The translations under genes and the position numbers were made by a program. A DNA stretch of 60,505 nt, counting the filler. It is 6 parts of 6 records of this genome, joined end to end, with 100 filler letters (N's around TTAATTAATTAA, not from the genome) between each part and the next. Parts side by side here need not be neighbours in the genome. Positions count along the whole stretch, not along the records: positions 32,919 to 43,199 come from SRR22947727_664; 5 more parts are not named here. One strand, given 5' to 3'. Positions 32,919 through 49,833 of the stretch are shown piece by piece. The notes under the pieces are model-generated. The model saw only the letters and a program-made list of their open reading frames with translations. It searched no databases and had not been told where the DNA came from. Each line of letters begins with the position of its first letter. Positions within the stretch are counted from its first letter, which is position 1.

Positions 32919-32919
32919 A

Positions 32920-33134: not shown

Positions 33135-34433
33135 ATGCATGAAAAAAATACTGTCGAAATTTTAAGTGAACTTGTTGCAATTGAATCAATAAGTTCTGAT
33201 CAAAATCATCAAGAAGATGTGATGAAATCTGCTCAATATGTAGAGAAGTTATTTTTAGAGTTAGGACTAGAAACCAAAATAGCTACATCTGGAAACAGTA
33301 GACCAGCTGTATTAGCTCAAACAGCAATAGACCCAAAGAAAAAAACAGTTTTATTGTATGCCCACCATGACGTACAACCTGTCGGTGATATTGACAAATG
33401 GAAGACAGAACCATTTACCCCAGAAATTATTGATGGAAGACTATATGGCAGAGGTTCTGGAGATAATAAAGCTGGTGTGGTAACGCATTATGAAGTATTA
33501 AAAGCTTTAAAAGATAATCTTCCAGTAAATATAAAGGTATTTATTGAAGGAGAAGAGGAAATAGGATCTCCATGTATGGCTGAGTTTTTAGATGAGTACC
33601 AAGATGATTTAGAAGCAGATGTAATCATCATTGCAGATTCAGGAAACATTAAAATAGGCACACCAACAGTGACTACCTCTCTAAGGGGACTGGTAGACGG
33701 AGTTATTGTCGTTGAACAACCAATGAGAGCAGTTCACTCTGGCCTTGGTGGAGGTGTTGTCCCGGATGCATTTATGGTACTTAGTAAAATAATTGCTTCA
33801 TTTCACAATGAAAAAGGCGAGCTGCAAATTGAAGGGTTAACCCCAAGCGATATGGAAGTATTAGAACTTGAAGAAAAAGACATAAAGGAAATCTTTGGCT
33901 CCAAGGATATTAATTTATTCGAACTAGATAGTATCTCCAAGAGATTGTGGCTTGAGCCAGCTTTAAGCATCTTAGCTATTGATGCGCCTTCAACCGATGA
34001 AGCTGTTAATTTACTTATTCCAAATGCTAAAGCTAAGGTAAGTTTGCGATTACCACCTACTGAAAATCCTGAACACGCAATGAAAATGCTTGAAGAACAT
34101 ATTATGAAAAATATTCCATGGGGTGCAAAGGTTAGTTTTGAACCTGAAGCAATGGGTTCAGGCATTATTGCAGACCCTAATAAAGAATTTACTAAAATAT
34201 TAGTTAAAAACTTTGAAGAGGTTTGGGAGAACAATGCAGCATATATGGGTGTAGGCGGATCAATACCTTTTGCTAATGACTTTGTAGAAAAGTTCCCTAA
34301 TGCAGAGTTGGTGCTTATTGGAGCTGGAGATGAAGAAATGGGTAACGCCCATGCTCCGAATGAAAGTGTTCAAATTGAAGATATTGAAAATCTTATCAAA
34401 AGTTTAATAAAGACTTTAAAAGATTTTTCTTAA
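33135..34433 (+). CDS. M20/M25/M40 metallo-dipeptidase
   Basis: YAHHDVQP, GRGSGDNKAG, EGEEEIGS, TTSLRG, GGSIPF, AHAPNE. Confidence 0.92.
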   Translation: MHEKNTVEILSELVAIESISSDQNHQEDVMKSAQYVEKLFLELGLETKIATSGNSRPAVLAQTAIDPKKKTVLLYAHHDVQPVGDIDKWKTEPFTPEIIDGRLYGRGSGDNKAGVVTHYEVLKALKDNLPVNIKVFIEGEEEIGSPCMAEFLDEYQDDLEADVIIIADSGNIKIGTPTVTTSLRGLVDGVIVVEQPMRAVHSGLGGGVVPDAFMVLSKIIASFHNEKGELQIEGLTPSDMEVLELEEKDIKEIFGSKDINLFELDSISKRLWLEPALSILAIDAPSTDEAVNLLIPNAKAKVSLRLPPTENPEHAMKMLEEHIMKNIPWGAKVSFEPEAMGSGIIADPNKEFTKILVKNFEEVWENNAAYMGVGGSIPFANDFVEKFPNAELVLIGAGDEEMGNAHAPNESVQIEDIENLIKSLIKTLKDFS

Positions 34434-34732
34434 CTCCTTAAAGCTTCCCTCATTAATGGGATTGCTTCCATGGCCTTCATACCTTTATCTGTAATTTTAT
34501 ATTCAACATGAGGAGGAATGGATTTAAAATCTTTTCTTGTTACAAGTTTATTTTCAGTAAGTTGTTTTAAAGTTTCTATTAGCATTTTCTCTGAAATTTC
34601 GGGGATTTCTCTCTTGATAGCACTAAATCTCTTAGATTCTTCTAACTTTGACAATACAAGTAGTGGCCATTTCCCACCTAATACTTTCAAAACAGCCCTT
34701 ATTGGACAATCAGTTTTATACTCAATTCCCAT
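34430..34732 (-). CDS. HxlR/DUF24 winged-helix transcriptional regulator
   Basis: DCPI...LGGKW, KRFSAIKREIPEISEKML, PPHVEYKIT; N-terminal Cys; ATG 34732 preferred over GTG 34747. Confidence 0.92.
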   Translation of the reverse strand: MGIEYKTDCPIRAVLKVLGGKWPLLVLSKLEESKRFSAIKREIPEISEKMLIETLKQLTENKLVTRKDFKSIPPHVEYKITDKGMKAMEAIPLMREALRS

Positions 34733-34777
34733 ATTCCAATTATACACGAACCTAAAGGTATGTGTACTATAAATTAT

Positions 34778-34795
34778 ATACTATAAAAAAAGTAT
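34778..34795. promoter_or_regulatory. Candidate HxlR-family operator
   Basis: Inverted repeat ATACT-N8-AGTAT in the divergent intergenic region. Confidence 0.4.
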
Positions 34796-34846
34796 GTACT
34801 ATATTTATAATGGGTGTATGGTTAGTAACTAATATATAAGGAGAAA

Positions 34847-35062
34847 ATGAAAAATTGGAATTCAATTTTAAGATGGGTCCACTTGTTTTTCGGTGGAGCT
34901 ATAAATGGCTACTTTTTTTACACAGTAGTTCTTGGGAACACAGCAACTGAAATGATGGTAAGCCTTGTAATGCTTTCAGGTGGTCTAGCATTCTGGACTG
35001 GATTAGCAAAATGGCAACTACCAAGAATAAGGAAATGGAGAAAGAAGGTAAACAGTGCCTAA
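34847..35062 (+). CDS. Small two-TM membrane protein
   Basis: 71 aa, AAGGAG RBS, LRWVHL and TGLAKWQ, divergent from HxlR. Confidence 0.75.
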   Translation: MKNWNSILRWVHLFFGGAINGYFFYTVVLGNTATEMMVSLVMLSGGLAFWTGLAKWQLPRIRKWRKKVNSA

Positions 35063-35165
35063 AGAATGTGGATGTGGAAGAAGTACCACCGGATTCTGTC
35101 AAGGCCTTCACTCCCTAAGTGAAGAGCAGTGGGAAGAAAAGAAGAAATCTGCTTCTAAAGAATAA
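35055..35165 (+). CDS. 36-aa Cys/His mini-protein, CDGSH-like
   Basis: GTG start after GAAGG, overlapping upstream stop; MPKECGCGRSTTGFCQGLHSLSEEQWEEKKKSASKE. Confidence 0.65.
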   Translation: MPKECGCGRSTTGFCQGLHSLSEEQWEEKKKSASKE

Positions 35166-35174
35166 AATACAACA

Positions 35175-35211
35175 AAAGGAATGTTCTAGTATTTTACTAG
35201 AATATTCCTTT
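35175..35211. repeat. 17-bp inverted repeat (terminator, RNA hairpin or operator)
   Basis: AAAGGAATGTTCTAGTA-TTT-TACTAGAATATTCCTTT, one mismatch (G-U pair in plus-strand RNA). Confidence 0.7.
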
Positions 35212-35228
35212 AGGTACACGGAGAGAAA

Positions 35229-36263
35229 ATGGAAATCGGAATAGATTCATTCGCCAAGAAAACTCAGACGAATGAAGGAGGTAATGTCGTAGATGATGCA
35301 CATGCAATGTCCGAGCTCATAGAGAGAATAGAACATGCAGATAAAGTAGGTTTAGATGTTTTTGGGATAGGAGAACACCATCGAGAAGAGTTTTTAGATT
35401 CTGCGGCACATAATATTCTTTCAGCAGCAGCAGCTAAAACTGAAAATATAAGACTTACAAGTGCAGTAGCTGTTATTAGTGCAATGGATCCAGTTCGACT
35501 ATTTCAAAACTATGCCACGCTTGATTTAATCTCAAATGGAAGAGCTGAAATCGTAGCTGGTAGAGGTTCTTTCACAGAAGCATTTCCACTTTTTGGCCTT
35601 GATTTTGCTGATTATGACAACCTATATGCTGAAAAGTTAAATTTATTATTAAAGATTAGAGATGAAGAACAAGTTACATGGTCAGGTAATTTCCGGCCAC
35701 CATTAGAGAATCAAACAATATACCCAAGACCATTACAGGAAAGGTTACCTATATGGGTTGGAGTAGGAGGAACACCTGCCTCTTTTGTAAGAGCTGGTGA
35801 GTTAGGGTTACCTCTCATGATTGCGGTCATTGGAGGAGAGACACATAGGTTTAGACCTTTGGTCGATCTTTATTATGAGGCTGCAGAAAAAGCCGGGCAC
35901 AAAAAGTCATCTTTAAAAGTTGGATTACATTCTTTAGGTTTTGTAGCTCACTCAAAAGGAGAAGCAATTGAAAAATACTACCCAGGTTATCGTGTTTGGT
36001 TTAATCAGATCGGTAAAGAGCGTGGTTGGCCACCTGTAACCATGGAGAGATTTGAGCAGCAAATAGATGATTTAGGAGCTTATGTTATTGGTAGCCCTCA
36101 GGAAGTAGCAGAAAAACTAGTTCGACACAGTGAAGCATTGGGCGGAATCTCACGCTTTACTTTTCAAATTGATAATGCTGGATTAACGCATGAAGATTTA
36201 ATGGAGACATACTCTCTTATTGGTGAAAAAGTCAAGCCATTGGTAAAGTCAATAATTAACTAA
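35229..36263 (+). CDS. LLM-class (luciferase-like) flavin-dependent oxidoreductase
   Basis: MEIGIDSFA, GLDVFGIGEHH, RLTSAV, DPVR, SNGRAEIVAGRGSF, GVGGTPAS. Confidence 0.93.
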   Translation: MEIGIDSFAKKTQTNEGGNVVDDAHAMSELIERIEHADKVGLDVFGIGEHHREEFLDSAAHNILSAAAAKTENIRLTSAVAVISAMDPVRLFQNYATLDLISNGRAEIVAGRGSFTEAFPLFGLDFADYDNLYAEKLNLLLKIRDEEQVTWSGNFRPPLENQTIYPRPLQERLPIWVGVGGTPASFVRAGELGLPLMIAVIGGETHRFRPLVDLYYEAAEKAGHKKSSLKVGLHSLGFVAHSKGEAIEKYYPGYRVWFNQIGKERGWPPVTMERFEQQIDDLGAYVIGSPQEVAEKLVRHSEALGGISRFTFQIDNAGLTHEDLMETYSLIGEKVKPLVKSIIN

Positions 36264-36378
36264 ATTTTTAAAATATCTAATAAATCTGTTTAACAATTAT
36301 TTAACATATTTCTCTGCAAGCAATATAAATTTTTTGTAATCTACTCTTAATAAATAAAAATTAGAGATAGGAAAATTT

Positions 36379-37011
36379 ATGGACACTTTTATGGACGAAA
36401 TAAAAAATATTAAAATGCTCACAAGAGTCGTAGCTGTTGCAGTGTTGATTAACTTTGTAATAATCGCCCTATTAGTGGGACCTGATGCTGTTGGATTTGA
36501 TCCAACTTATGGGCCAATTACTGGGATATTAAACTTTGTAATAGCATTCTGTACATCAGGTGTTCTTATGGGAATATATGTTGTATTTGACGTAAAAAAG
36601 ACTTTTGACCTAGCTCATATGCACAATGTATTATTTGTAGCTGTTTGTGCTCAAATGCTTTTTGCGTTAGGTGCTGTCTTCAATTACAACAGTGTATTCG
36701 AAACAGTTTTAGATACTGATACCATTTGGGCAGTTTCAGGATCATTTAATAACACTGTATTTATCCTCTACGGTCTTTACGCATATCTGTTAGTTACACG
36801 TGATCACAATAACTTACTAAGCAAGAGAACTCAGAATGTTGGTAAAATTTTTGCTGGAATAATAGTTCCAGTACAAATTCTCACTTTATTTGGACTAGTT
36901 CCTCAAGTGGTATTTGCACCTTTATTTGTTTTAGGAGGAGTTATCCTTTACCCACTCTTCATGATTGGAATAGGAGATGCGATAGGTAACTACCAGAAAA
37001 CAGAAGGATAA
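36379..37011 (+). CDS. Hypothetical multi-pass membrane protein
   Basis: 210-aa ORF with about six hydrophobic segments; no family recognised. Confidence 0.75.
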   Translation: MDTFMDEIKNIKMLTRVVAVAVLINFVIIALLVGPDAVGFDPTYGPITGILNFVIAFCTSGVLMGIYVVFDVKKTFDLAHMHNVLFVAVCAQMLFALGAVFNYNSVFETVLDTDTIWAVSGSFNNTVFILYGLYAYLLVTRDHNNLLSKRTQNVGKIFAGIIVPVQILTLFGLVPQVVFAPLFVLGGVILYPLFMIGIGDAIGNYQKTEG

Positions 37012-37036
37012 TTCACCTACACAAGAAAGGTAAAAT

Positions 37037-37672
37037 ATGTATTTTAGAATAACCATCCCAGCTTTACAGGATGGAAAAAAAGATGAGGCTGTATCATTTG
37101 TTAAAGAAAATGTTATGACATCTTTTGATGACACGCCAGGGCTACTTTCAATGACTGCTGCTATAACTGGGGAAACCTCATTTATTAATATGGCTGCCTG
37201 GGAAAGTAAAGAGGCTGTAGAAGCAGTAGCTGAAAAAATTCAAGCAACTTTGGCAGATGCAGCATCTTTCATGGCCGCACCACCGGTAATTTATGAAGGT
37301 GATGCAGTGTTTGGAAATGTCTACAAAAGCATAGGCGTAGGTGAAGAAAAACCAAGTTACTTAAGATTAGTTGTGGGTGTCGCTAAAGATACCGATGCAG
37401 TCTTAAACTTTTTAAAAGAAAAGGTAGAACCTATTTATGAAGATTCAGATGGTCTTCAAATAACAGGAGCAGTCTTTGATGGTAATAGTGCTATTAGTTG
37501 GAACTTTTGGGACTCAAAAGAAGCTATGGATGCCGCAGTAGAGAAACTACAAGCAGCACTAGATAGTGAAGCAGAATCTGATTTATTTGATGGTGAGACG
37601 TTAGCATATATGGGACCCGTGTTTGCAGCTAGTCTATTTAGAGATTTTAACGAAGGAGACTCCCCACTATAG
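37037..37672 (+). CDS. Tandem ABM-like (dimeric alpha/beta barrel) protein
   Basis: Two similar halves: YFRI..PGL..WESKEAVEA and YLRL..DGL..WDSKEAMDA. Confidence 0.7.
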   Translation: MYFRITIPALQDGKKDEAVSFVKENVMTSFDDTPGLLSMTAAITGETSFINMAAWESKEAVEAVAEKIQATLADAASFMAAPPVIYEGDAVFGNVYKSIGVGEEKPSYLRLVVGVAKDTDAVLNFLKEKVEPIYEDSDGLQITGAVFDGNSAISWNFWDSKEAMDAAVEKLQAALDSEAESDLFDGETLAYMGPVFAASLFRDFNEGDSPL

Positions 37673-37674
37673 AA

Positions 37675-38031
37675 ATGGATGACTACATAATAAAAAGGTT
37701 TGACAACCCTGATGAAGTCAGAGAATTCGATAAAGGAAAATACGAAGTCATTAACTTACCCGGCATGACGATAGGTAAAGCTACTTATTACAAAGGGTGG
37801 AAATGGTCTGTGGACGTCTCTCCACTCTCAGGCACAGAATTTTGTGAGACGGAACATTTAGGAATGGTGATTTCAGGCACTGCAACAGTTGCAATTGAAG
37901 GTGAACCCGTGAGGGAAATTACAGCAGGAGATCTTTTTTATGTTTCACAAAAACGACATGATAGTTGGGTTGTTGGAGATGAAGATTATGTATCAATCCA
38001 TTTTGCCGGTGCCGAAAAGTATGCCGATTAG
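37675..38031 (+). CDS. Cupin domain protein
   Basis: PDEVREF, GWKWS, C...HLGMVISG, AGDLF...HDSWVVG. Confidence 0.85.
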   Translation: MDDYIIKRFDNPDEVREFDKGKYEVINLPGMTIGKATYYKGWKWSVDVSPLSGTEFCETEHLGMVISGTATVAIEGEPVREITAGDLFYVSQKRHDSWVVGDEDYVSIHFAGAEKYAD

Positions 38032-38062
38032 TAAAATATAAAACTCAATAGAATACGCTTAT

Positions 38063-39136
38063 ATGCCTAGCCAAAGAAGATATGATATTGATGCATTGAG
38101 ATCTATTGCAATGTTCTTACTTATTTTTTATCACCTTGGAATTTCTTTTACTTCTATTGCTCCATATATCGCATTTGTTCAAAACAAACGAGTCACAGAT
38201 AGTTTATGGATTATTCTCAGCTTTCTGAACACCTGGAGAATTCCCCTTGTTTTTTTGATAGCTGGAATTGCCCTCCGTTTATCTTTTCAAAAAAGAGGTA
38301 AATCTCAAATCTTAAAAGAAAGATTAAAAATGTTGGGACTTCCTTATATTTTTGGATCGCTTACCTTTGGAGCTGCCTCTGTCGCAATAGCTACAACTTA
38401 TTATGAGGGGTGGTCGGATGAATATCTTTGGATAGGCATGTATACAATTTTTGATGGCATTCATCTATGGTTTTTAAAAAATATTCTTTTTTACTGCTTG
38501 GTGCTTATTCCTTTACTGAATCTAATTTCAAATAAAGATTCAAAAGTAAATATTATTTCAAAGCTTTTAGACAAACCTGCTGGAGTATTTGTGTTTTCTA
38601 TCCCAGTAATTCTAGAGGGACATTTGTTCATGAATATAGACTATGCTTCATACGCAAATACCAGTCATGGTTTTGTCTTAGGATTTATATGGTTTTTTAT
38701 GGGTATTGTCCTTGTTTCTCAGGGTGATAGTTTCTGGAATTCAAATAAAAGAAATTGGAAAATACATCTATTTTTAGGATTTAGTTTGTATTTTTATAGA
38801 TTAATAAATAGTTTTGAAAGTGGCCTAGCTCTTGATAATCGCTTAATTGCATTTGAGTCATTTAATTTTATACTCGCAATGCTCGGATTGGGCGCGACCT
38901 ATTTAAATACAAATTCACCTCAGCTCACCTACTACAAGACAGCTGTTTATCCGGTTTACATCGTACACCTACCCGTCCAGATGGCATTAATGTCTTACTT
39001 TGCAGGCGTAAATATCCATCCAATTATTAAATTCCCTCTAGTTCTATTCTTAATAGTTTTTTTAAGTTTGACGATTTACCATGCCATTAAAAATATAAAA
39101 TTTCTGAGACCACTTTTTGGACTTAGAAATAAATAG
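38063..39136 (+). CDS. Acyltransferase-3 family (OpgC/MdoC-like) membrane protein
   Basis: RRYDIDALR..YH, WRIPLVFLIAG, ERLK.L..P, HLWFL, YPVYIVHLP. Confidence 0.88.
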   Translation: MPSQRRYDIDALRSIAMFLLIFYHLGISFTSIAPYIAFVQNKRVTDSLWIILSFLNTWRIPLVFLIAGIALRLSFQKRGKSQILKERLKMLGLPYIFGSLTFGAASVAIATTYYEGWSDEYLWIGMYTIFDGIHLWFLKNILFYCLVLIPLLNLISNKDSKVNIISKLLDKPAGVFVFSIPVILEGHLFMNIDYASYANTSHGFVLGFIWFFMGIVLVSQGDSFWNSNKRNWKIHLFLGFSLYFYRLINSFESGLALDNRLIAFESFNFILAMLGLGATYLNTNSPQLTYYKTAVYPVYIVHLPVQMALMSYFAGVNIHPIIKFPLVLFLIVFLSLTIYHAIKNIKFLRPLFGLRNK

Positions 39137-39146
39137 AGAGCTATTT

Positions 39147-39272
39147 ATGAATAACAGAATCTTGATGAGGATAATCATAACTACAATATTCATTATTTAC
39201 TTATTTGTATCCGATGGTTATCTGGCAAGAAGACTGGTTCAGCTACCTGAGCTACTATTAAATAATTTTTAA
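39147..39272 (+). CDS. Possible 41-aa single-TM protein
   Basis: Manual translation MNNRILMRIIITTIFIIYLFVSDGYLARRLVQLPELLLNNF; AGAGAG upstream; fills the intergenic gap. Confidence 0.4.
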   Translation: MNNRILMRIIITTIFIIYLFVSDGYLARRLVQLPELLLNNF

Positions 39273-39286
39273 CCTATGGTTGTCTT

Positions 39287-39661
39287 ATGAAATTAACTGA
39301 TTTTTCAACTGTTCAGTACATTAACCTAATTACCTACAGGCGAGACAACACTCCAGTATCGACAGCTGTTTGGGTTGTTGGGATCGAGGATGCCTTATAT
39401 GTGACAACAGGTAAGGTCTCCGGAAAAGTTAAGCGAATTAGAAATAATGGGAAAGCAACGATTCACGAAACTAATCAGTCAGGCTCACAAAAACTTTCAG
39501 AGGACTTAGACCTCTATGCAACAATTGTTGAAGACCAAGTAGAGAAGCAGAATGGTATAAAAGCAATAACTAAGAAATATGGTCTTATGGCAAAGATGAT
39601 GATGCGAGGACCTGATGAAGGTAGAGCTATCATCAAGCTAACCAACTCTAAACAACACTAA
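39287..39661 (+). CDS. PPOX-class probable F420-dependent oxidoreductase
   Basis: YINLITYRRDNTPVSTAVW, GKVKRIRNN, KKYG; split-barrel family typical of Actinobacteria. Confidence 0.88.
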   Translation: MKLTDFSTVQYINLITYRRDNTPVSTAVWVVGIEDALYVTTGKVSGKVKRIRNNGKATIHETNQSGSQKLSEDLDLYATIVEDQVEKQNGIKAITKKYGLMAKMMMRGPDEGRAIIKLTNSKQH

Positions 39662-39663
39662 TT

Positions 39664-39716
39664 TCACAAGAATAATTTATTTGTGAAAAAAAAATCACAA
39701 ACTTTATTTATTGTGA
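39664..39716. repeat. Two tandem TCACAA...TTGTGA inverted repeats between convergent genes
   Basis: TCACAA-N11-TTGTGA-A8-TCACAA-N10-TTGTGA. Confidence 0.55.
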
Positions 39717-39718
39717 AG

Positions 39719-40888
39719 TTATTTAATCAAATTTATAAAAAGTGAGGATGCAAGCAATAAGCATCCAAAAAGTCCAAAATATGCAGTTATCACAGGGTAA
39801 AGTCTTTTAGATTCTTCAATTTTGATTACAGAATAGTTTGTAATTGAATAATACAAGAGAACAAAGAAAGAGCTTAGTTTTATTGCTTCAACTACATCAA
39901 AATACAATATTCCAACCACTACAACAATAGAGACAAGAATATCTGCAATATAAGCTGAGTTATATTTACTGTGGATACCACTAAGAGAGTTAGGTAGATA
40001 GTTATCTCTAGACATGGCAACAACCACTCTGCTTATCCCCGGTATGAGTGCTAGCAGCACGGAAGCTGTTGCAATTGTTGAGGCTATGGAAATTAGAAAT
40101 GAAAAATTAGAAAATCGTGATATATCAAAAGCAACTTTAAGCGGGGTTAAAGAGTTTTGAATTATGTCCGGATTAATAATTCCCAATGTGACATAAGTAG
40201 TTAAGAAGTATATCGATACAGTTATCCCAAGACCCGTAAGAATTGCTTTTGGAATAATTTTTTCTGGATTCTCGACTTCCTCACCAAATGTTGCCAAGCG
40301 AGAATAACCAGTAAATGCAAAAAACCAAATACTACTGCTTAAAAGTAATGACTCAAATGTTAATCCTTTTGTAATAGGGATAACAAAATTAAAATTATCT
40401 GAAGAAACTACAGAAAAAATGTAGAACAGAAGAATACCCAATACAGAATAGACAAACCATTTTGCAACAGAGGCAGTCTTCGCTGCACCAAAATAACTAA
40501 CAGTACCAACAATAAAAACTAAAGTTATACCTGCAATCTTGTGTGATGATGGATATAAATAGTGTCCAAAAGTTAAAGCTATAGCAATGGAGCTAATAAT
40601 TTTACCAATGATAAAAGTTGTACCCGCAATAAGTGAGCTAGAGTTCCCTAAAACTTTTCTGGCATATGCATAGGTACCACCTGTCTTGGGATAGAGTCTT
40701 GCGAGCTGTGCAGAAGAGCTAGCATTCGAGAATGCTAAAGTACTAGCAACTAATAACCCAAACAATAAAGAATAAGAAGAAATAATTGCTGCAGGTGCAA
40801 TATTTATAAATAAACCGGCACCAATCATTGAACTCAATCCCAAAAAGATTGAGTTGCGCAAGGTTAAAGTTCTTTTAAAGTGTTTCAT
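39719..40888 (-). CDS. APC-family amino acid permease
   Basis: GLSSMIGAGLF, SSAQLA..YP.TGGTY, FFAFTGYSRLATFGEEV, SRVVVAMSRD; ATG 40888 preferred. Confidence 0.92.
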   Translation of the reverse strand: MKHFKRTLTLRNSIFLGLSSMIGAGLFINIAPAAIISSYSLLFGLLVASTLAFSNASSSAQLARLYPKTGGTYAYARKVLGNSSSLIAGTTFIIGKIISSIAIALTFGHYLYPSSHKIAGITLVFIVGTVSYFGAAKTASVAKWFVYSVLGILLFYIFSVVSSDNFNFVIPITKGLTFESLLLSSSIWFFAFTGYSRLATFGEEVENPEKIIPKAILTGLGITVSIYFLTTYVTLGIINPDIIQNSLTPLKVAFDISRFSNFSFLISIASTIATASVLLALIPGISRVVVAMSRDNYLPNSLSGIHSKYNSAYIADILVSIVVVVGILYFDVVEAIKLSSFFVLLYYSITNYSVIKIEESKRLYPVITAYFGLFGCLLLASSLFINLIK

Positions 40889-40932
40889 GCTAGTTATTTG
40901 TATTACCATCTAATAATATAGAAAATATAAAA

Positions 40933-41916
40933 ATGTTTGATAAATTAGCACCCGTACCAATAAACAACTCAAAACACAGAAACTTAATGATTTTTTCTAT
41001 GAGCTGGTTCCTTATAGGAACATGGATTGATGCAAGCGCTCACAGTTACCTCAATGGAGATTTAGAAACTTTTTTTACGCCATGGCATGCTGTGTTGTAT
41101 TCCGGATATGCGTTTTCTGTACTTTCCACAATGTATATTAAAAATTCAATAAAAGATTACAGAATAGACATTGGTGTTTTGGGTGCAGTTATTTTTGGAA
41201 TTGGTGGTGGACTCGATTTGCTTTGGCATACCTTTCTTGGAATAGAACAGGGAGTTGAACCATTAGTGTCTCCATCCCACCTAATGCTTTTTCTCGGTGC
41301 TTTTTTGATGTTGGCCTACGTATTTGCTTCTAGACCAAATAAAGAAAGCCTAGATACTCCTGCTGTAATTACAGTCGGTGCTGCTTTTAGTTTGATTACA
41401 TTTATTACACAGTTTCTACACCCTTACCTGAATGTTGGAGAATTCTTTTGGTACGGGATTGAAGAACTTGCAGCAGGTTCATTATTTTTCCAGGCGTTAT
41501 TAGCAAGTATGATATTTGTCTTCATCATTAGATTTAAACCTACTAAAAATCAAATATTCATAATGTACACCATGTCATTTTTGTACCTATCTTTTCACTC
41601 TGTGCTTGGCGATCAAGAACTCTTGGTTGCAAAACTATTTTGGGGAGCATTATTTGGTTATTTAGGTTCTCAAATCACTAATTGGTATTACAACACAGAA
41701 AGTAAACAAAAAATGCAAATAGCTACTTCTCTAGTTGCAGGCTCCTATGGTCTCCTTTTCGTTCTTTATCTATTTGCTGCAAGTATTTACTTTGAGCAGG
41801 AGATGGTTTGGAGATTCTATGGCCTAGGAGGACTTGTTACGGTGCCACTCCTTTTTGGTTATATGATTGGTGGTTTAGGTGTTAGTCCTGTTACTAAGGA
41901 AATTATTAATAATTAA
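40933..41916 (+). CDS. Multi-pass membrane protein with two D-x3-H...P-x-H motifs (PmoC/AmoC-like metal site candidate)
   Basis: WIDASAH..ETFFTPWH and LDLLWHTF..E..VSPSH; many hydrophobic segments; ORF is solid, function is inferred. Confidence 0.7.
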   Translation: MFDKLAPVPINNSKHRNLMIFSMSWFLIGTWIDASAHSYLNGDLETFFTPWHAVLYSGYAFSVLSTMYIKNSIKDYRIDIGVLGAVIFGIGGGLDLLWHTFLGIEQGVEPLVSPSHLMLFLGAFLMLAYVFASRPNKESLDTPAVITVGAAFSLITFITQFLHPYLNVGEFFWYGIEELAAGSLFFQALLASMIFVFIIRFKPTKNQIFIMYTMSFLYLSFHSVLGDQELLVAKLFWGALFGYLGSQITNWYYNTESKQKMQIATSLVAGSYGLLFVLYLFAASIYFEQEMVWRFYGLGGLVTVPLLFGYMIGGLGVSPVTKEIINN

Positions 41917-41917
41917 A

Positions 41918-42613
41918 CTAGTAAGTTTTAAGTTCGTCGCCATCCATAAAAGATACGTTATTGAATTCTTTTAATCTGAAGAAATGACCTGATGAAATTT
42001 TTGTAGATTTCAAAATTGTATGACCCGCATGTCTTGGTAGAAACTTTCTCCACGTCCATGGATACAAAGGCATATTTAAAAAATAAGAAATAAGTACAGA
42101 CATTGTTCCTGCATGAGAGATAATTATGAGCTTTTCTGTCTCATTATCATCAAGATTAAAAAGTCTGTCATATTTGTTATCAATACTGACTATTCCAAGC
42201 TCTGAAAGATTTTCACCAAGTTTTGTAATTATATTTTCACTAAAAGTTTTCATATACTCACCATGATTAGTGACCAACCATTCCTCAAAAGACTTACTAT
42301 TACGCTTAATGAAAAATTCTTCAATCTCTTTATTTGACTTACCGATGAGGTCTACTTCTTCACTATCTCGCATTTCCTGTAGCCAGTCGTGAACAATAAT
42401 ATCTTCAGATACTCCGACTTCTTTGAACGGTGCAAGAGTTTGTTGAGCACGCAAAAGTGGCGATACCCATATTTTATCTACTTCTCCCTTAGTAAAAATA
42501 CTAGAAGATAGGAATGCTTGCCTAGTTCCCTTTTCAGTTAAACCAGGATCAAGATTATATTGATCATTTTTTAACCACTCTGGTTGCCCATGTCTTATAA
42601 GTACAATTTCCAT
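41918..42613 (-). CDS. Histidine phosphatase (phosphoglycerate mutase-like) family protein
   Basis: LIRHGQP, LTEKG..QA, SPLLRAQQT, ISHAGT; ATG 42613 preferred. Confidence 0.9.
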   Translation of the reverse strand: MEIVLIRHGQPEWLKNDQYNLDPGLTEKGTRQAFLSSSIFTKGEVDKIWVSPLLRAQQTLAPFKEVGVSEDIIVHDWLQEMRDSEEVDLIGKSNKEIEEFFIKRNSKSFEEWLVTNHGEYMKTFSENIITKLGENLSELGIVSIDNKYDRLFNLDDNETEKLIIISHAGTMSVLISYFLNMPLYPWTWRKFLPRHAGHTILKSTKISSGHFFRLKEFNNVSFMDGDELKTY

Positions 42614-42665
42614 TACAAAAACAATAGCCAAATTGAGTTATTCTGATAGGAAAAGAAATAAAATA

Positions 42666-43106
42666 ATGAATAGAAAACTTTATAGAACACCACAGAAGAT
42701 GCTGCCAATACTTCTTACTGGCTTCTCTCTTTCATATGTATCTATTGACAATATTTTTAATGGCCCTTTTAGGAATTTTTTAAAAAACTATATTTCACTG
42801 AATGAATTTGGGTCAAACATTCGTGAGGAAGTTTTATACTATCTCATTTTACTCGTAGGGGGTTTCCAACTCTTTACTGCTGTACAAAGTATTTTTCAGC
42901 CAGTTCTTGAAATATCAGAACACAAAATAGCCATGAGGACTTCTGAAAAACTTCTTACAGTTGTTAAAGACATACAAGACCTGCAGGCAGCAGTTCTGCA
43001 TGAAGACTATGTTAGATTTACATTTAATGATGAGACCTATTCTGTATTTGTCGAAAACATTGAGGCAGACGAGTTAGAGAGCCTACTGAATGAATTAAAT
43101 ATCTAA
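42666..43106 (+). CDS. Hypothetical membrane-anchored protein
   Basis: ORF with two hydrophobic segments and a soluble C-terminus; no family recognised. Confidence 0.65.
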   Translation: MNRKLYRTPQKMLPILLTGFSLSYVSIDNIFNGPFRNFLKNYISLNEFGSNIREEVLYYLILLVGGFQLFTAVQSIFQPVLEISEHKIAMRTSEKLLTVVKDIQDLQAAVLHEDYVRFTFNDETYSVFVENIEADELESLLNELNI

Positions 43107-43199
43107 AATGTTCGCGAAAAATAGATTAATGATTTTCTTGCCAAACTGACCATTATTAGGTAAATTTATTAAACACTAAAGAAAAAGAAGTCGCAAGAC

Positions 43200-43299
43200 N
43201 NNNNNNNNNNNNNNNNNNNNNNNNNNNNNNNNNNNNNNNNNNNTTAATTAATTAANNNNNNNNNNNNNNNNNNNNNNNNNNNNNNNNNNNNNNNNNNNN
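43200..43299. other. Artificial contig spacer
   Basis: N44-TTAATTAATTAA-N44. Confidence 0.98.
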
Positions 43300-44639
43300 T
43301 GATTATCATATAAGAAATCATATTGAATATGATCATTCATTTTATTCCAGTCTTCTGGAGTTACAATATTTTTTAATATTAGTTGAGTGCGAAGCATATC
43401 ATTAAACATACTTGCAAATCGTTTTCTTAAACGGCCAACAAACTTTGAAAATTTAAGTTCGTCTCTTAAAATTTCAGATGAACGTCCCAAGTTAAATCCA
43501 TCACCACCACCGGCAATTCTAGATTCTGGAACGCCGAGTGCTCTATAAAGTTTTTTCTGGAAATACTCAATATCAGAAAGTTCTCCTAAATTCTGACCAC
43601 CAGGAAGAGTTGTGATTTCGGTTCCTCTACCACCCTCTCTTCTTGGAAGCCAGAAATCTTCCATCATACTCATAAACTTTTTATCATCACGAACTTCGCC
43701 CGTATTTGCATCATATACAAGTTTATTTCTATAACGACTCATAACTTCTTTGAGATATTGCTCTGCCTTTACTTTCGGCAAATTGCCAACATCAATATAA
43801 AAAATACGACGCTCTGGTGCCCTAGAAAGTCTGTAAATAACAAGAGAATCCTCAATCATTCGAAGTTGATTGAGTGCCTTAATCGCTTTATGAAGATATG
43901 ATAGTACAGTACCCTGATTTCTGTCTACTAGACCGGAGGTACAATAACTAATCGAATCCTTTGAAATTTTTACAGAATTTTTTGCCGCAGATCCATATCC
44001 ATATGCTCCACCCGATTGACTTGATGATGGAGTATATACAAAATACTCTTCAATCTCTGGGTATGCAACCTGATTCGCATTTAAATTGGCAAGTGATGAT
44101 ATATTTGGCCCAGATTTATTACTTGTTTTTTTCTCTTGACGAACGTGCTTGATCTTCATTGGATCAATGTATCTTAATTCCTGAATTCCTTCCTCAGGTT
44201 TCTTCAAATCAATAACTTTGAGATAAAATAGTCTTCCGTCAATATACCAATTTCTAAAAATTTCGTGACACTTCTTATCGAAGTCCATTATTTCTTTAAT
44301 ATTCTTAAACTCTTCTCTTATAGCAGTTTTGAGTTTATCACTAGCATTTAAATTTGTTAGTTCAATTTCAACCGGAGAGTCATATAAGTCACTCACAAGC
44401 GCCTCATTCACAACATCTTCTATTGCTCCGTCACATTCTGGATGAAGTGACATTTCTCTATATCTTTTAATTAGATCATATTCTGTTCTATAAACACCCT
44501 CAATATCAATTGTTTGTCCATAAAATCCCGATTGAATATAATGATCAACCCCGTCATCATTACTTTGAGGAACGGGGGAGACTATGGACTTAGATTTTTT
44601 TTCACCATCCTCAATCGAAAAACCAAAAAGTTTCGCCAT
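43300..44639 (-). CDS. g20: T4-like portal vertex protein gp20, 3' truncated
   Basis: MAKLFGFSI, YLHKAIKALNQLRMIEDSLVIYRLSRAPERRIFYIDVGNLP, EDFWLPRREGGRGTEITTLPGG. Confidence 0.97.
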
Positions 44640-44667
44640 CTTATAAACTTAAACTCTTAATATGATA

Positions 44668-44675
44668 TATTTAGT
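44668..44675 (-). promoter_or_regulatory. T4-like late promoter candidate for g20
   Basis: ACTAAATA on minus strand overlapping g19 stop; related to T4 TATAAATA. Confidence 0.55.
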
Positions 44676-45261
44676 TAATATCCACACCACCCGCCTTAGC
44701 AGAGTCGCCCTTAATAGCTTCCCACCAAAGAACTTGCATTTCTACGGTAAATTCCTGAATACCATCAGTTCCGTAATCGAGTTGAATCGCACTGATATTT
44801 GTTGGGAATAAATCATAAAAATGATATGCTCTCAGAGTTGAACCATCACGATCTAACTGATAAACAAAGGCATCAGCAGTATATTCTGCCGAATCAGTAA
44901 CACCGGTATTGTCTGATACTCTATTAATGGTATTCATCCAGTTTTCAAATGCCGAACGAATTATAAAGTCGGTATCATTAAGAACCGTAATTGTCCAAGT
45001 TGCGAAGGTGCGATCTCCGGCTAATTTTAAAGTTCTTCCCCTAAATGCAACTGTTAAAGGATTTATAATCGAATCGGGGAGTGCCACAGCTTTGATTAAG
45101 AATCTTGATTTGTCAAGAACATTAGTGTCGGCAGGAGCGGCAGATGGGAAAGAAATAACAACCTCAAAAAGGTTACTTCTAGCACCACCACCAGTCAGCT
45201 TGCTCTTGAAGTCTGTAATTTTCCTTAAAGGAGGTGGATTTAATTGATTTCTGGTAGCCAT
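44671..45261 (-). CDS. g19: T4-like tail tube protein gp19
   Basis: GGGARSNLFEV, FRGRTLKLAGDRTF..WTITVLND, FPTNISAIQL. Confidence 0.95.
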   Translation of the reverse strand: MATRNQLNPPPLRKITDFKSKLTGGGARSNLFEVVISFPSAAPADTNVLDKSRFLIKAVALPDSIINPLTVAFRGRTLKLAGDRTFATWTITVLNDTDFIIRSAFENWMNTINRVSDNTGVTDSAEYTADAFVYQLDRDGSTLRAYHFYDLFPTNISAIQLDYGTDGIQEFTVEMQVLWWEAIKGDSAKAGGVDIN

Positions 45262-45281
45262 TGTTGTTTAACCTCTGTTAA

Positions 45282-47450
45282 TTAAAATTTACCGATTACT
45301 TCTTCAAAATCAACACCAGTCTTGGTGGCAATAAAGGTAAGACCGATGAAGTTAATCGATCTTGCTGGCTTAATGTAAATATCTGCCACGAATTCATTGG
45401 CATCAATAACTGCTGCCGTATTATTAGTTTCATCAGCAATTACAACATAATCAAAAATACCTCTCTTTGCCTGAACATCACGCAAGAACGGTTCAATTGT
45501 ATTTACAAAATTAGTTCTTGTAATTTCATCGTTAAATTCAAAGAGCACATCCTTGGAAGCACGAGAAATGGCATCTTCCAGATAAAGGAAGAGTCTGCGA
45601 ACGTTGATTCTATCGAATGCCGATGTTCTTCCTAATCCTGTTTTGTCTCCAAATAGAATAATGCCTGCTCCTGGTGAGAAAATAACCGGGTTAATTCTCT
45701 TTGTATAAAGACGATCTCTTTGTGATTTACTTGGAGTATAGGCAAGTTTAATCGCATTTAGAATGGCACCTCTTGCCGTTCCGGCAGGTGAATACCAGGG
45801 GAAGAAGTTAGTATCGGTGCGAGCACATAAACCGGCGATGTCGCCATTTAGAGGCACATAGCGATAGGTATTAGCGAACCTATCGTACATATACTTATAA
45901 CCAGAATCAAATACGGCAAAAGATGAAGATGCTACTGGAGCAAAGAAACTAACCACATTTGTTGTGATGTCTTCCGACGATCTTACTGTGACACCTCCCT
46001 CTCCACCATCCGCAAGAGCAGTATCTCTGGATGGGGAAATAAATGCGATTGCATCCTTTCTTAATTCGGCAACAGAGATAAGTTTATTTGCCAATTCTTG
46101 CGAATCTGCCTTCGAACGGCCACCACCTGCCAACAGAAAATCTATATCAATACTTTCTGTATTTTCGAACAAATCGTAACCATCCTTGATTTCGGCAAGA
46201 GTTGCGGTTAAAGCACCAGCAGTTGTAATTCCGGTTTGACCATTATAATTTACACCACCAGCCAAAGTGGAAGTAACATTACCAGAAGTACCAAAAATAA
46301 TATTTTCTGCTGGTTGATCCCAGGCATTATCGGTTGTTAGGTCAAATTGATTTGCATCATATCCTGTCGTTGTAAGACCGGCAGGTGAACCACCGGCAAA
46401 AATGTATGCAGAATTCGCGGCAATATACTTTCTCCAATAAGCAGTGCTTCCTGCCGAAAATTCAGCATCAGTTGCCTTGGAAAGACCCAAATGCCTTTCA
46501 AGAACTGTTCCGGCATTACCAGTAATACTTCCTAAATCATCAATAAGAACAACGTGAACTTCATCAAATCTAGATCCTCTTGGTGCTGCAAATGCCGAAG
46601 TTCCGGGAGCCTGTGCAATACTATTCCATTGGATGCTAGAATTAGTCAAAGTAATGTATTGTTGACTGAACCAATCAACTTCGCTGGTATAAGATGTAGA
46701 TCCCAGAGCAACCAAAGCACTGTTGTCTATTCCCGTTGTTACGATGCCAACAGTTCCACTTTCGGTAAAGCAGTAATTTCCGTCTTGCTCATAATCAACG
46801 GTAGTTTCTGTATTTCCGGATGATACACGACTTAAAATTTTAACTGAAACTGAACCAGCGCCAATTTCAGTAATAATTCCTTTTAGATAAGAACCTGTTA
46901 AATCAATTGAAGTTCCGGAAGAAGTATCTACTTTTCCAGTAAGAGATTGAGTTAATCCGTAACCAACTTGGGCAAGCGTGGTTACAATACCACTTAAAAT
47001 TTGGTCTGCTTTGGCATCAACGATTCCAACTTTAATGCCATTTGCCCAAGAACCAGGATTTCTTGCTGCAACTACGACATTAGTAATAGTATTTTCATCA
47101 TATCCAAGTTCTTCATAATTATCTAAACTTTTAATCTTGACACTACTTGCGGTTCCGACAAAAGCATTTTTGAGGTCAGTGTCGTCTGCTCTGATTACTT
47201 GCAGCGATCCACCATAAGAAAGGTAAGATGATGCAACCATCCAACTTTCATAATGCCTATCTGTAGCATAAGGTTGTCCAAAATTATTCAGTAAATCATT
47301 TTCGCTTTCAATTAAAGTAGGCGAATCTACAGGTCCTTTTGCAAATGGTGAAACAATTGCTCCCATTTGAGTAGCTCCTGGTTGAACCCTACCAGAAGTA
47401 AGATCAATTTCCTTTACTACGATTCCAGGAGATGCTAAATTTAGTGGCAT
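45282..47450 (-). CDS. g18: T4-like tail sheath protein gp18
   Basis: LASPGIVVKEID, DSGYKYMYDRF, PWYSPAG..RG, SAFDRINVRRLF, IKPARSINFI. Confidence 0.97.
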   Translation of the reverse strand: MPLNLASPGIVVKEIDLTSGRVQPGATQMGAIVSPFAKGPVDSPTLIESENDLLNNFGQPYATDRHYESWMVASSYLSYGGSLQVIRADDTDLKNAFVGTASSVKIKSLDNYEELGYDENTITNVVVAARNPGSWANGIKVGIVDAKADQILSGIVTTLAQVGYGLTQSLTGKVDTSSGTSIDLTGSYLKGIITEIGAGSVSVKILSRVSSGNTETTVDYEQDGNYCFTESGTVGIVTTGIDNSALVALGSTSYTSEVDWFSQQYITLTNSSIQWNSIAQAPGTSAFAAPRGSRFDEVHVVLIDDLGSITGNAGTVLERHLGLSKATDAEFSAGSTAYWRKYIAANSAYIFAGGSPAGLTTTGYDANQFDLTTDNAWDQPAENIIFGTSGNVTSTLAGGVNYNGQTGITTAGALTATLAEIKDGYDLFENTESIDIDFLLAGGGRSKADSQELANKLISVAELRKDAIAFISPSRDTALADGGEGGVTVRSSEDITTNVVSFFAPVASSSFAVFDSGYKYMYDRFANTYRYVPLNGDIAGLCARTDTNFFPWYSPAGTARGAILNAIKLAYTPSKSQRDRLYTKRINPVIFSPGAGIILFGDKTGLGRTSAFDRINVRRLFLYLEDAISRASKDVLFEFNDEITRTNFVNTIEPFLRDVQAKRGIFDYVVIADETNNTAAVIDANEFVADIYIKPARSINFIGLTFIATKTGVDFEEVIGKF

Positions 47451-47486
47451 CTTTGTTCTCCGTGTTATCCCGATTTATTCTAGAAG

Positions 47487-47494
47487 TATTTATT
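47487..47494 (-). promoter_or_regulatory. T4-like late promoter for g18
   Basis: AATAAATA on minus strand 36 bp upstream of g18 start, followed by GGAG RBS. Confidence 0.7.
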
Positions 47495-47534
47495 AAAAAG
47501 TTTATTTTCATTGGGGAAACGGTCAATGAACAAC

Positions 47535-47771
47535 TTACCAGTCAGGATAATGCCAATTGTGAGATTGTGTATGCTTTTTTCTATTTTTAGTAATTCTTGT
47601 TTTGGTGCATTCCTTACATTCGTAGGCATATGCAGAAGGAAGGGCACCCTTTCCTTTGCGAGTTAGATAATAATCATCAATCAAACTTTTTGTTTTTTTA
47701 CATATTCTACATTGACGTTCTAAAAAAAGTAGGTGTTGAGTATTGATTTGATCATCAATATCAAAATTCAT
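47535..47771 (-). CDS. Small phage protein with two CxxC (Zn-finger-like)
   Basis: CRIC...CKEC, ends YPDW; ATG 47771 overlaps gp17 stop (TAATG). Confidence 0.8.
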   Translation of the reverse strand: MNFDIDDQINTQHLLFLERQCRICKKTKSLIDDYYLTRKGKGALPSAYAYECKECTKTRITKNRKKHTQSHNWHYPDW

Positions 47772-49492
47772 TATTGGTAATCCCACATATATGAACGATC
47801 ACCATATTCGTCGACATTCCATATTTCTTGAGATTCGAATTTATTTTCTTTTGTGGCAATCAACCACCTATCACCCGTTTCTTTCTCTATAAAGACACTC
47901 ATATCTTCCAATCCGTCTGAAATAAATCCAAATGGTGCCATATCCTGATCTATTTGATTTTTTTGTTCTTCATATATTCTCTTACGAATATCATTATTAG
48001 TCATCTCCTTAAAATAATTTTGAGCGACTAACCAGGCAAAAATTACCAAGCACATCGCAAGGTCGTCATTACAACCTTCCTCGGCTTCATACGAGTTATG
48101 TCTTTGAGTAAATGTTGTAAGCTCACTAATAATGTCATAGTCACTTACAAATAGTTTATCATCCTCAATAAGTAATTTTAAGTTGGAGCATCCCAACTTT
48201 TTAACTGCCGCAGTCGTTCTGATTCCAAGTTGAGATTTTTTACCACTAAATCCAGTTCCAACTAACTGCCCAGCTCTTCCTCTCATAGCACACATTAAGA
48301 TATTATCATATTCTAAATCATAATGAAGAATATTAGCGACCTGATCTCCAATATCATTAACTTCTATAAGTAACCAGGCATTATCATATCCTTTTGCAAC
48401 TTCATTTATAATGCTGGGAAATAGCATCGGTTTAATTTCATTATTTTTGTATTTTGCCACAACTCTATAAGGAAACTGTGTAATATCAAAAACAACAAAT
48501 GCTGAATAGTCATTACCCATTCCACGAGCAACATCAACTGTAATCAAGTAACTGTGGTCTTCCTTTGGTTCTTCATAAACATCAAGACCTTTACTTCTTT
48601 TTAATGGATCATCATAAACTAATATTTTAAGTTTGGATGGATTAATGAGAGTTCCTATGGACCCTAAAAATTCACAAAGGTGCTCTGCCTTAAATTGTTG
48701 CTCACTTGTGTTTGCAATTGTTTGTGCCTTCCATTCCTCATCTCTTCCGGGAACTTCGGACCAATGAACCTCTGTGGCAACAAATTCACTCTTTTTTCTT
48801 TCTGCATCGTGCCACATACGATAAAAGTGATTCATACCCTTTGGAGTGGATACTATAATTACTTTAGTCGTCTTACCTGATGAAATTGTGGGATATACTG
48901 ATGCAAAGAAATCATCGGCAATATGATTGGGAACGAATGCAAATTCGTCCAAGAAAATAATATTAAATGACATTCCTCGAACAGCAGAAGCAGAAGTCGA
49001 TGCCGCAATAATTTTTGATCCATTTTCCAATTCTAATGATCCTTTATTCCAAGAAATAATGCCTTGCTGCATCCATTTTGGAAGATTCTCATATGAGAGT
49101 TGTAGTCTTTGTAATATTTCTCTTGATGTTGTTGCTTTGTTTGCCAGAATACCAACATTTACATTATCGTTAAAAACGATATAATGTAACAAGTAAGACA
49201 CCACCGTTGTTGTCTTACCAACCTGACGTGGCATTTTACAAATATTAAATCGGTGCTTGTGAAAATTACTAACCAATTTTTCTTGAAAAGGCCACATATC
49301 AAATCCAATCAGACCTTCATCAACATTAACAATCTTAATATATTTCTTGGCAAAATAAACAGGATCCTCCTTACAAGTTAAAAACTCAATAACTTGATCT
49401 TCGGTAAATTGAATCGGAGTATTTGCCCTTTTTAGATTTGGGTTAGATAGATATGCATCACCCTCTTTTAATTGTATATCTTCAATTTGCAT
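47771..49492 (-). CDS. g17: T4-like terminase large subunit gp17
   Basis: YLSNPNLK, Walker A PRQVGKTT, Walker B IIFLDEFAF, STPKGMNHFY, VDVARG, NDDLAM. Confidence 0.97.
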   Translation of the reverse strand: MQIEDIQLKEGDAYLSNPNLKRANTPIQFTEDQVIEFLTCKEDPVYFAKKYIKIVNVDEGLIGFDMWPFQEKLVSNFHKHRFNICKMPRQVGKTTTVVSYLLHYIVFNDNVNVGILANKATTSREILQRLQLSYENLPKWMQQGIISWNKGSLELENGSKIIAASTSASAVRGMSFNIIFLDEFAFVPNHIADDFFASVYPTISSGKTTKVIIVSTPKGMNHFYRMWHDAERKKSEFVATEVHWSEVPGRDEEWKAQTIANTSEQQFKAEHLCEFLGSIGTLINPSKLKILVYDDPLKRSKGLDVYEEPKEDHSYLITVDVARGMGNDYSAFVVFDITQFPYRVVAKYKNNEIKPMLFPSIINEVAKGYDNAWLLIEVNDIGDQVANILHYDLEYDNILMCAMRGRAGQLVGTGFSGKKSQLGIRTTAAVKKLGCSNLKLLIEDDKLFVSDYDIISELTTFTQRHNSYEAEEGCNDDLAMCLVIFAWLVAQNYFKEMTNNDIRKRIYEEQKNQIDQDMAPFGFISDGLEDMSVFIEKETGDRWLIATKENKFESQEIWNVDEYGDRSYMWDYQ

Positions 49493-49493
49493 A

Positions 49494-49833
49494 CTAACAA
49501 TTCCACTTTCTTAATGATAATGCTTTTCTTGTTGGACGACCTTTTTCATCTTTCATAGGACCGGGCATTCCTCCCATACGAGCACAGAAAGACTTTCTAC
49601 GCTTTGCATCCTTTGATCCTGGTTCTAATTTTGATGGTTCTGTCGTAACCGCAGTCTGTAACTTTGATCCAGGATTTTCTCTTCTGTATGATGCCACTCC
49701 TTTTGCATTTAATCCACCTTCGGGATTCTTACCTTCCTTTCTTTGCCAGGCAGCGGATGCTTCGCCCATAAATTGCGAGAATGTTCTGTTGCCTTCTTTG
49801 ACACAACGATTGTAAGTTTTTCCAAAAAGTTTT
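49494..49833 (-). CDS. Phage hypothetical protein (DUF6321-like C-terminus), 5' truncated
   Basis: AWQRKEGKNPEGGLN...RRKSFCARMGGM...RKWNC; frame stays open to contig edge (LFGKTYNRCVKEGNRTFSQFMGE). Confidence 0.75.

Follow-up and report, generated by a model that had tools for sequence, protein, structure and literature searches.

A stand-alone actinobacterial membrane protein with two Asp/His/His triads, a probable very distant relative of the copper-site core of PmoC and AmoC

Methane and ammonia monooxygenases are copper membrane monooxygenases (CuMMOs), the two enzymes controlling methane and nitrogen cycling. The available text of PMC11725843 describes these three-subunit enzymes as losing activity outside their membranes, and hence as hard to study. 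In that text and in the accessible portion of a second source, the CuC/CuD pocket of the PmoC/AmoC subunit is now the favoured active site, proposed to be catalytic (PMC11725843, PMC13058606). Here we describe a gene at positions 40933..41916 (plus strand, stop codon included) of a 60,505-nucleotide stretch of DNA, hereafter the window, which consists of six segments. According to the list of open reading frames (ORFs) and its translation, this coding sequence encodes a ten-helix membrane protein of 327 amino acids, and loci 96-98% identical to it belong to Candidatus Actinomarina / Actinomarinales. The protein is not a methane or ammonia monooxygenase. We regard it as probably a stand-alone metal-binding membrane protein that is a very distant homolog of the PmoC/AmoC core and does without PmoA and PmoB.

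For comparison we collected real PmoC/AmoC genes with the Pfam family PF04896, which found them in 9 of 121 Methylomirabilota genomes and in all 15 genomes of one gammaproteobacterial order; an actinobacterial-type PmoC/AmoC clade was later added to the reference set. AmoC was not found in 401 small-genome bacteria. Genomes flagged as unpublished are counted in our tallies (9 in the gammaproteobacterial order, 1 in Methylomirabilota, and 5 in Actinomycetota), with no sequences of theirs in the alignments. The real PmoC motifs are DGTWHQTVIRDTDFTPSH and NEWGHTFWIMEELFVAPLH, in agreement with the PmoC motif strings that a preliminary description of the window, made from its letters, had given. 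The ligands given for Nitrosospira briensis AmoC in the part of PMC12801151 available to us, Asp134/His138/His151 for CuC and Asn205/His209/His223 for CuD, fall in the same columns as these motifs.

The window protein carries two triads in its N-terminal four-helix bundle, a PmoC/AmoC-like putative metal-site module of residues 13-132 (40969..41328) recognised by conservation, structural alignment, and the merged profile described below. Triad 1, D33-x3-H37-x14-H52 (DASAH...ETFFTPWH; 41029..41088), aligns to the Asp/His/His of PmoC CuC, and triad 2, D95-x3-H99-x16-H116 (DLLWHTFLGIE...VSPSH; 41215..41280), which includes the invariant E105, aligns through the merged profile and the sister family to the Asn/His/His of CuD; these features, like the gene, are on the plus strand. 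The preliminary description had proposed both triads, each joining two transmembrane helices, and the translation and the AlphaFold2 model confirm them. The full-length model, built with 101 homologs, has ten helices (predicted local distance difference test, pLDDT, 90; predicted TM-score, pTM, 0.87), and the N-terminal domain modelled alone reaches a pLDDT of 87. In the full-length model helix 13-39 carries D33 and H37 at its C-terminal end and helix 50-73 carries H52 at its start; helix 80-102 likewise carries D95 and H99 at its end, and helix 114-132 carries H116 at its start. A helix hairpin is thus bridged by each triad: the Asp and the first His occupy the final turns of one helix, and the following helix, entered through a Pro, has the second His in its opening turn. 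The six residues lie at the same end of the bundle formed by helices 1-4. Lys and Arg together number 12 on the alternate loops versus 1 on the motif-side loops, a bias which indicates that the motifs are on the outer face. The whole protein contains 7 His and no Cys.

The triads are invariant in a family that is otherwise highly diverged. Both motifs are present in all 80 of the full-length homologs checked (the first 80 of 99), and constancy of the ligands among homologs, which had been named beforehand as a test, was found in every one of 101 aligned sequences. The invariant columns of this alignment are G29, D33, H37, F47, H52, Y56, D95, H99, G103, E105, S113, P114, and H116, and the most conserved stretch of the family is residues 20-167. 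Since mean column identity is 25%, the invariance of the motifs is beyond chance and implies strong selection. Within the family, the first hairpin aligns to the second (hhalign, P 0.0049), suggesting an internal duplication.

The family is large and unnamed. The protein matched no family in Pfam (E<=1) or NCBIfam (E<=10) and no sequence in the PDB (E<=10), and every named relative is labelled 'hypothetical' or 'uncharacterized'. We found 433 homologs by word index, 1293 representative clusters at 50% identity (E<=0.001), and at least 596 confirmed relatives in a genome scan. Among the matches listed, relatives occur in Actinomarinales, Peribacteria and other Candidate Phyla Radiation (CPR) groups, Chloroflexota, Paenibacillus, Deinococcus, a Heimdallarchaeote, Pirellulales, and Methylomirabilota. 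Within Actinomarinales, to which the close relative G127 belongs, one copy each is present in 60 of 65 genomes (incomplete, 0.6-1.1 Mb), making this a single-copy core gene of the order. Its retention in single copy in genomes of about 1 Mb suggests that the gene likely matters to the cell. A search for extra domains in 20 long or representative relatives found none in 6, and the domain-bearing forms were P0146, P0151, P0166, P0180, P0196, P0203, P0204, P0214, P0260, P0267, P0209, P0190, P0213, and P0217.

The gene stands alone. Upstream is an APC amino-acid permease gene (PF00324, 4e-26), divergent on the opposite strand with 23 bases between the start codons, and downstream is a His_Phos_1 phosphatase gene (5e-20), convergent and also on the opposite strand, so that the gene is monocistronic. 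These are the neighbours given in the preliminary description, with no pmoA or pmoB adjacent, and its view of the protein as acting alone finds support beyond the locus itself. The PmoA and PmoB families PF02461 and PF04744 were absent from all five Actinomarina genomes searched (incomplete, 0.8-1.1 Mb) and detected in 4 of 4 positive controls, and PF04896 was absent from the one Actinomarina genome searched with it (G127). A strong match to the window family occurs in only 1 of the 9 AmoC-positive Methylomirabilota genomes. This small overlap, together with the lack of PmoA, PmoB, and AmoC in the Actinomarina genomes searched, argues that the protein is not part of a CuMMO. At five Actinomarina loci we found no operon partner; the upstream permease is kept in four of them, and the gene downstream, in every case on the opposite strand, is variable and encodes the phosphatase or PlsC-type acyltransferases. 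Likewise, pmoA and pmoB did not recur among 99 immediate neighbours at 51 non-Actinomarina loci. One Methylomirabilota genome (G009) has a full pmoCAB set and a strong stand-alone family member elsewhere, so pmoCAB and the stand-alone family are not alternatives.

An indirect link between the window family and PmoC/AmoC comes through sister families. The N-domain profile matched 43 of the 121 Methylomirabilota genomes, 19 of them at E<=1e-50, and a second class of matches at 27-48 bits is a sister family with the motifs WDIQWH..GRDSFWIPPH and DDLWHRLFGIDVTLWSPPH. Its spacings, x3/x12 and x3/x13, are exactly those of PmoC. A further sister clade, found in 46 of 251 Actinomycetota genomes, has the motifs DVAWHIDLGRDKELFTPPH and DDMWHRAYGIDVTMWGPTH. 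No Pfam or NCBIfam name was found for these families, whose members are annotated as hypothetical, and their PmoC-identical spacings indicate that they sit between the window family and PmoC. In hhalign comparisons the sister family aligns to the window family with probabilities of 98.4% (E 7.9e-15) and 98.1% (8e-14), and to 25 PmoC/AmoC sequences with a probability of 67% (P 5.1e-5); a broader sister set reaches 22% (P 9.4e-4). Searched against 177,635 PDB sequences, the sister profile returned four matches at E<=10, of which the top three are AmoC (E 0.16, 0.17, and 0.36) and lie on the CuC hairpin.

A merged profile of 91 sequences also matches PmoC/AmoC. Against the 25 PmoC/AmoC sequences it aligns over 117 columns at 87.6% probability (hhalign, P 3.5e-6), placing D33, H37, H52, D95, H99, and H116 on the D, H, H, N, H, and H of PmoC, with triad 2 on PmoC N202/H206/H220. 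As controls, a reversed PmoC profile gave P values of at least 0.058, the C-terminal domain of the family gave P 0.19 against PmoC, and 60 full column shuffles reached a maximum score of 21.3 versus 50.0 for the real profile. Masking of the six ligand columns left a score of 32.6 (P 0.0013). These profile comparisons support a proposed wider PmoC-like superfamily, which would be joined to PF04896 by a significant profile link over the four-helix core with the ligands in register. We found no published definition of such a superfamily.

Many of the sister proteins are about 600 amino acids long, with a C-terminal outer domain. At 5 of 12 actinobacterial loci (L163, L164, L165, L167, and L170), a sister gene of this size is followed by two genes on the same strand, the first encoding a small His-rich lipoprotein (DELHVHS.PEH ... 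ELH) and the second a polytopic membrane protein of 427-442 amino acids that starts with AHGLGGSTDLP. Neither the lipoprotein nor the membrane protein matched Pfam, NCBIfam, or the PDB. The order and sizes of the three genes recall C-A-B operons; homology to PmoA or PmoB was not found.

Structural comparisons of the N-terminal domain also retrieve the C subunit. Foldseek placed PmoC/AmoC at ranks 4, 18, 23, 25, and 40 of its top 50 with 19-23% identity, and these matches include the highest probability of the list (0.66), at E 1.1-2.7; nothing reached E<=1e-3. In a second look with VIA-align, which re-aligned 586 of Foldseek's 588 best chains, nine chains had Z>=8 and four of these are PmoC (7s4h_C 8.4, 7s4m_C 8.3, 7yzy_C 8.2, and 9cl2 8.2). 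The N-terminal fold superposes on the PmoC core, residues 140-271 (113-244 in 7s4m_C), over 117-118 residues with a root-mean-square deviation (rmsd) of 3.6-3.7 Å and 18-21% identity, versus 4-8% identity for other bundles at similar Z. The best superposition is with 7s4h_C (Z 8.4, rmsd 3.6 Å, 118 residues, 18% identity). A protein language-model search with the N-terminal domain ranked AmoC clusters second and third among named clusters, with scores of 0.87 and 0.86 and with 194 and 189 of 256 features in common, a level that the search tool itself rates as a lead. Finally, we scored short conserved blocks, narrower ones having replaced long blocks whose placements were inconsistent. Four conserved family blocks scored 8 of 9 PmoC sequences higher than every one of the 980 decoy ORFs, a score attained in 8 of 3000 shuffles; in the reverse test, 60 of 101 family members ranked above every decoy.

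Based on these results we consider it likely that the module is homologous to PmoC/AmoC. The gene, the motifs and their invariance, the fold class and topology, the size and spread of the family, and the lack of A and B partners are established by the results. The homology is supported but indirect, and metal binding, copper, and catalysis are points that we only infer. The protein is a ten-helix inner-membrane protein with both termini inside, whose first four helices are probably homologous, very distantly, to the PmoC/AmoC core of four helices in which CuC and CuD are housed. The bundle appears to have arisen from an old duplication of a two-helix hairpin, each copy with a [D]-x3-H followed by a P-x-H. 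D33/H37/H52 and D95/H99/H116, aided by the invariant E105 and Y56, would form the site for one or two metal ions at the end of the bundle in the outer leaflet; by analogy with PmoC, the metal would probably be copper. The site is predicted to face a pocket formed with the C-terminal six-helix domain, and this pocket might hold a membrane-soluble or extracytoplasmic substrate that is transformed or sensed. In its strongest and quite unlikely form, this proposal makes the family a minimal single-subunit copper oxygenase of CuMMO ancestor type, a core gene product that would activate O2 at a CuC/CuD-type site with neither PmoA nor PmoB, for the oxidation of a membrane-soluble substrate.

The same module could serve another purpose, in a metal sensor or in a protein of metal uptake or delivery instead of an enzyme, and we regard this as somewhat unlikely. 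One relative of 995 amino acids (P0217) carries PAS, HisKA, and HATPase_c domains C-terminal to the module, as sensor kinases do, but this fusion is present in just 1 of the 20 forms scanned. Sensor domains are among the top bundle matches of the window protein (LytS-N, Z 9.8-10.4; McpS, Z 12.0); however, they are generic bundles with 8-9% identity. A transport function would fit a weak likeness of the less conserved C-terminal six-helix domain (residues 142-315; 41356..41877, plus strand), defined from the AlphaFold2 helices and VIA-align, to the S components of energy-coupling factor (ECF) transporters, which bind transport substrates. In VIA-align, residues of about 134-327 align to the S components 5edl_A, 4z7f_A, and 6zg3_H at Z 8.4-10.0 with 7-11% identity, a Z under the telling level for helical proteins. 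No metal-efflux, chaperone, or regulator gene recurs beside the gene among the 99 immediate neighbours scanned, and the equivalent site of PmoC is the one proposed to be catalytic in the accessible text of PMC11725843 and PMC13058606.

Convergence would give a different account of the triads, in which an unrelated four-helix membrane bundle evolved two Asp/His/His sites independently at its helix ends and would resemble PmoC through a common way of holding metal at the membrane surface; we judge this unlikely. The results that weigh against homology with PmoC/AmoC are mainly those of direct comparison. The protein does not match PF04896 in Pfam at E<=1, and PDB sequence searches with the protein and with the full-length and N-domain family profiles gave no PmoC match at E<=10, nor did the broader sister profile match any PDB sequence at this threshold. 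With hhalign, the full-length family aligned to a 9-sequence PmoC alignment with a probability of 0.2% and in an unrelated region, and the N-domain gave P 0.078 against the 9 sequences and P 0.088 against the 25. HMMER with filters off scored about -1 bit against real PmoC. The best local HMMER alignment sets D33/H37/H52 on the PmoC CuC triad D131/H135/H148 (numbering of locus L081), and so does hhalign with the 9-sequence set, but the 25-sequence set aligns the second hairpin of the family to the CuC hairpin instead. The CuD half-domain gave P 0.18 against PmoC in hhalign, and its alignment to CuD is seen only through the merged profile and the sister family. The spacings of the window protein are x14 and x16 versus x12 and x13 in PmoC, and the first CuD position is Asp instead of Asn. 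With the full-length model, Foldseek returned nothing at E<=1e-3 and listed no PmoC, and the VIA-align top 50 (Z >= 7.9) held generic bundles and S components only, with no PmoC. Four-helix bundles are generic in shape, and unrelated ones reach Z 8-12. When PmoC profiles were shuffled in intact 12-column blocks, scores stayed high (median 26.5, maximum 50.3), so the signal lies in short motif blocks, which metal-site convergence could also yield. No recognised copper-handling family was found among the 99 immediate neighbours at 51 loci.

The remote kinship with the CuMMO C subunit that was proposed in the preliminary description fails in the direct tests and gains its support by way of the sister family, the merged profile, and the language-model search. 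Of the refuting outcomes named in that description, none that lay within reach of the analysis was observed. Each positive line falls below its own usual threshold (E 1.1-2.7 in Foldseek, Z below the 13 asked of helical bundles in VIA-align, a language-model atlas score <0.9, and E 0.16 for AmoC), and together these lines point to one family out of thousands. Several of them speak against convergence. The sister family shares with PmoC its exact spacings and also residues that are not ligands (a W before the first His, an R-D pair, and F/T-P), and the merged profile still aligns at P 0.0013 with the six ligand columns masked. Three unbiased searches, of PDB sequences, with Foldseek, and in the language-model atlas, each retrieve AmoC/PmoC, and identity in the structural alignment to PmoC exceeds that of other bundles.

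We also considered a membrane-embedded zinc hydrolase or peptidase, in which the His/Asp/Glu cluster would be hydrolytic and act on extracytoplasmic proteins or lipids. His/His/Asp with an invariant Glu, here E105, is a common zinc-hydrolase set. A PD40 beta-propeller follows the conserved four-helix module in 12 of the 20 relatives scanned, in a presumed outer loop and with more membrane helices after it, and a PDZ domain is similarly placed in one; domains of these types often present peptides to proteases. However, both are absent from the window protein and from all Actinomarina forms, no peptidase or hydrolase family was matched in Pfam or NCBIfam, there is no HExxH or similar motif, and the nearest family in every search is a monooxygenase subunit, which makes a hydrolase distinctly improbable. 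It is highly improbable that the conserved Asp and His residues are a proton relay or the catalytic dyad of a transferase or transporter instead of metal ligands: His/Asp pairs do serve in acyltransferases and proton-coupled carriers, but the symmetry of the two three-residue sets, their place at helix ends, the Pro-x-His turn, and the invariant Glu all fit the known CuC/CuD geometry class, and no transferase or carrier family was matched in Pfam or NCBIfam.

The segment that holds the gene runs from about 32919 to 43199 and has a G+C content of 34-36% around the gene. Further upstream in it are two ordinary context genes, an Acyl_transf_3 membrane acyltransferase (38063-39136) and a small PNPOx-like protein (39287-39661) that scores under the family cut-off. 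Three studies contributed RNA-library contigs that span the gene, but these contigs span both opposite-strand neighbours equally; with DNA carry-over possible, this coverage is no proof that the gene is transcribed. The segments of the window are joined at 11138-11237, 23270-23369, 32819-32918, 43200-43299, and 49834-49933 by paired runs of 44 N with 12 bases between them. Since these runs resemble contig joins or masked joints, the order of genes on their two sides should not be relied on. The adjoining segment, 43300-49833 (genes in 43248-47450), encodes a T4-type portal protein (PF07230, E 1.8e-170), the 3′ end of which enters an N run, together with a tail tube protein of gp19 type. This myovirus-like contig within an Actinomarina assembly may stem from a phage captured while infecting a single cell, or else be a binning artefact.

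Outside Actinomarina, the gene neighbourhoods of the family vary. Among the 51 loci, a TetR-type regulator is upstream in 7, and a class-I S-adenosylmethionine (SAM) methyltransferase is directly downstream in 5, mostly in Chloroflexota. In the Chloroflexota loci L026, L054, L066, and L077 (also L041, L061, L064, and L068), the gene is often found between a divergent TetR_C_8 regulator and the SAM methyltransferase, and one Chloroflexota locus has a cytochrome P450 downstream in place of the methyltransferase. These neighbourhoods may reflect modification of a small hydrophobic molecule and are too sparse to build on.

If a two-site module of this type exists in a one-gene protein, it would be a far easier system for asking what the site can do alone and which metal it holds, and family members occur in harmless, cultured species of Paenibacillus and Deinococcus. 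Such proteins would also provide the first outgroups for the origin of the copper membrane monooxygenases. Were the minimal-oxygenase proposal true, such an enzyme would be a core gene product of a bacterium that ranks among the most abundant and most streamlined in the ocean, and the family would represent the ancestor type behind the three-subunit methane and ammonia monooxygenases. In our literature coverage, which did not extend to subscription journals, we found no published description of such PmoC/AmoC relatives.

Among known systems, PmoC/AmoC is the closest (PF04896; chain C of 7S4H, 7S4M, 7YZY, and 9CL2; ammonia monooxygenase 9CL6, 9PXF, and 9LEG). Both have four consecutive helices with two triads whose order and side agree; in each triad one helix ends in [D]-x3-H and the next begins with P-x-H, and the shared residues extend beyond the ligands in (D/E)-T-x-F-T-P-x-H. 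In PmoC, a subunit of six helices, two helices precede the metal core and none follows, whereas the window protein lacks the two N-terminal helices and has its core as helices 1-4 of ten, followed by six unrelated helices. The hosts differ as well: the window family occurs in heterotrophs, CPR bacteria, and archaea without methane or ammonia oxidation. The likeness of the six C-terminal helices to ECF S components (5EDL, 4Z7F, and 6ZG3 chain H) is one of shape only; the genes for the A and T components that accompany an S component are not found near the window gene, and there is no Pfam match. Lone copies of true amoC and pmoC (amoC3 of Nitrosomonas, orphan pmoC, and phage- or virus-borne genes), as described in the available parts of PMC13058606 and PMC7674155, are likewise C-type genes away from A and B. 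They belong to PF04896 as ordinary members, share 60-80% similarity with the operon copies, and occur in organisms with A and B or in the phages of such organisms; in contrast, the window protein lies outside PF04896, and A and B were not found in its host group. The sister families have a homologous N-terminal module like that of the window family, and differ in that 5 of the 12 actinobacterial sister loci add lipoprotein and membrane-protein partners to it, whereas the window gene carries its module without such partners.

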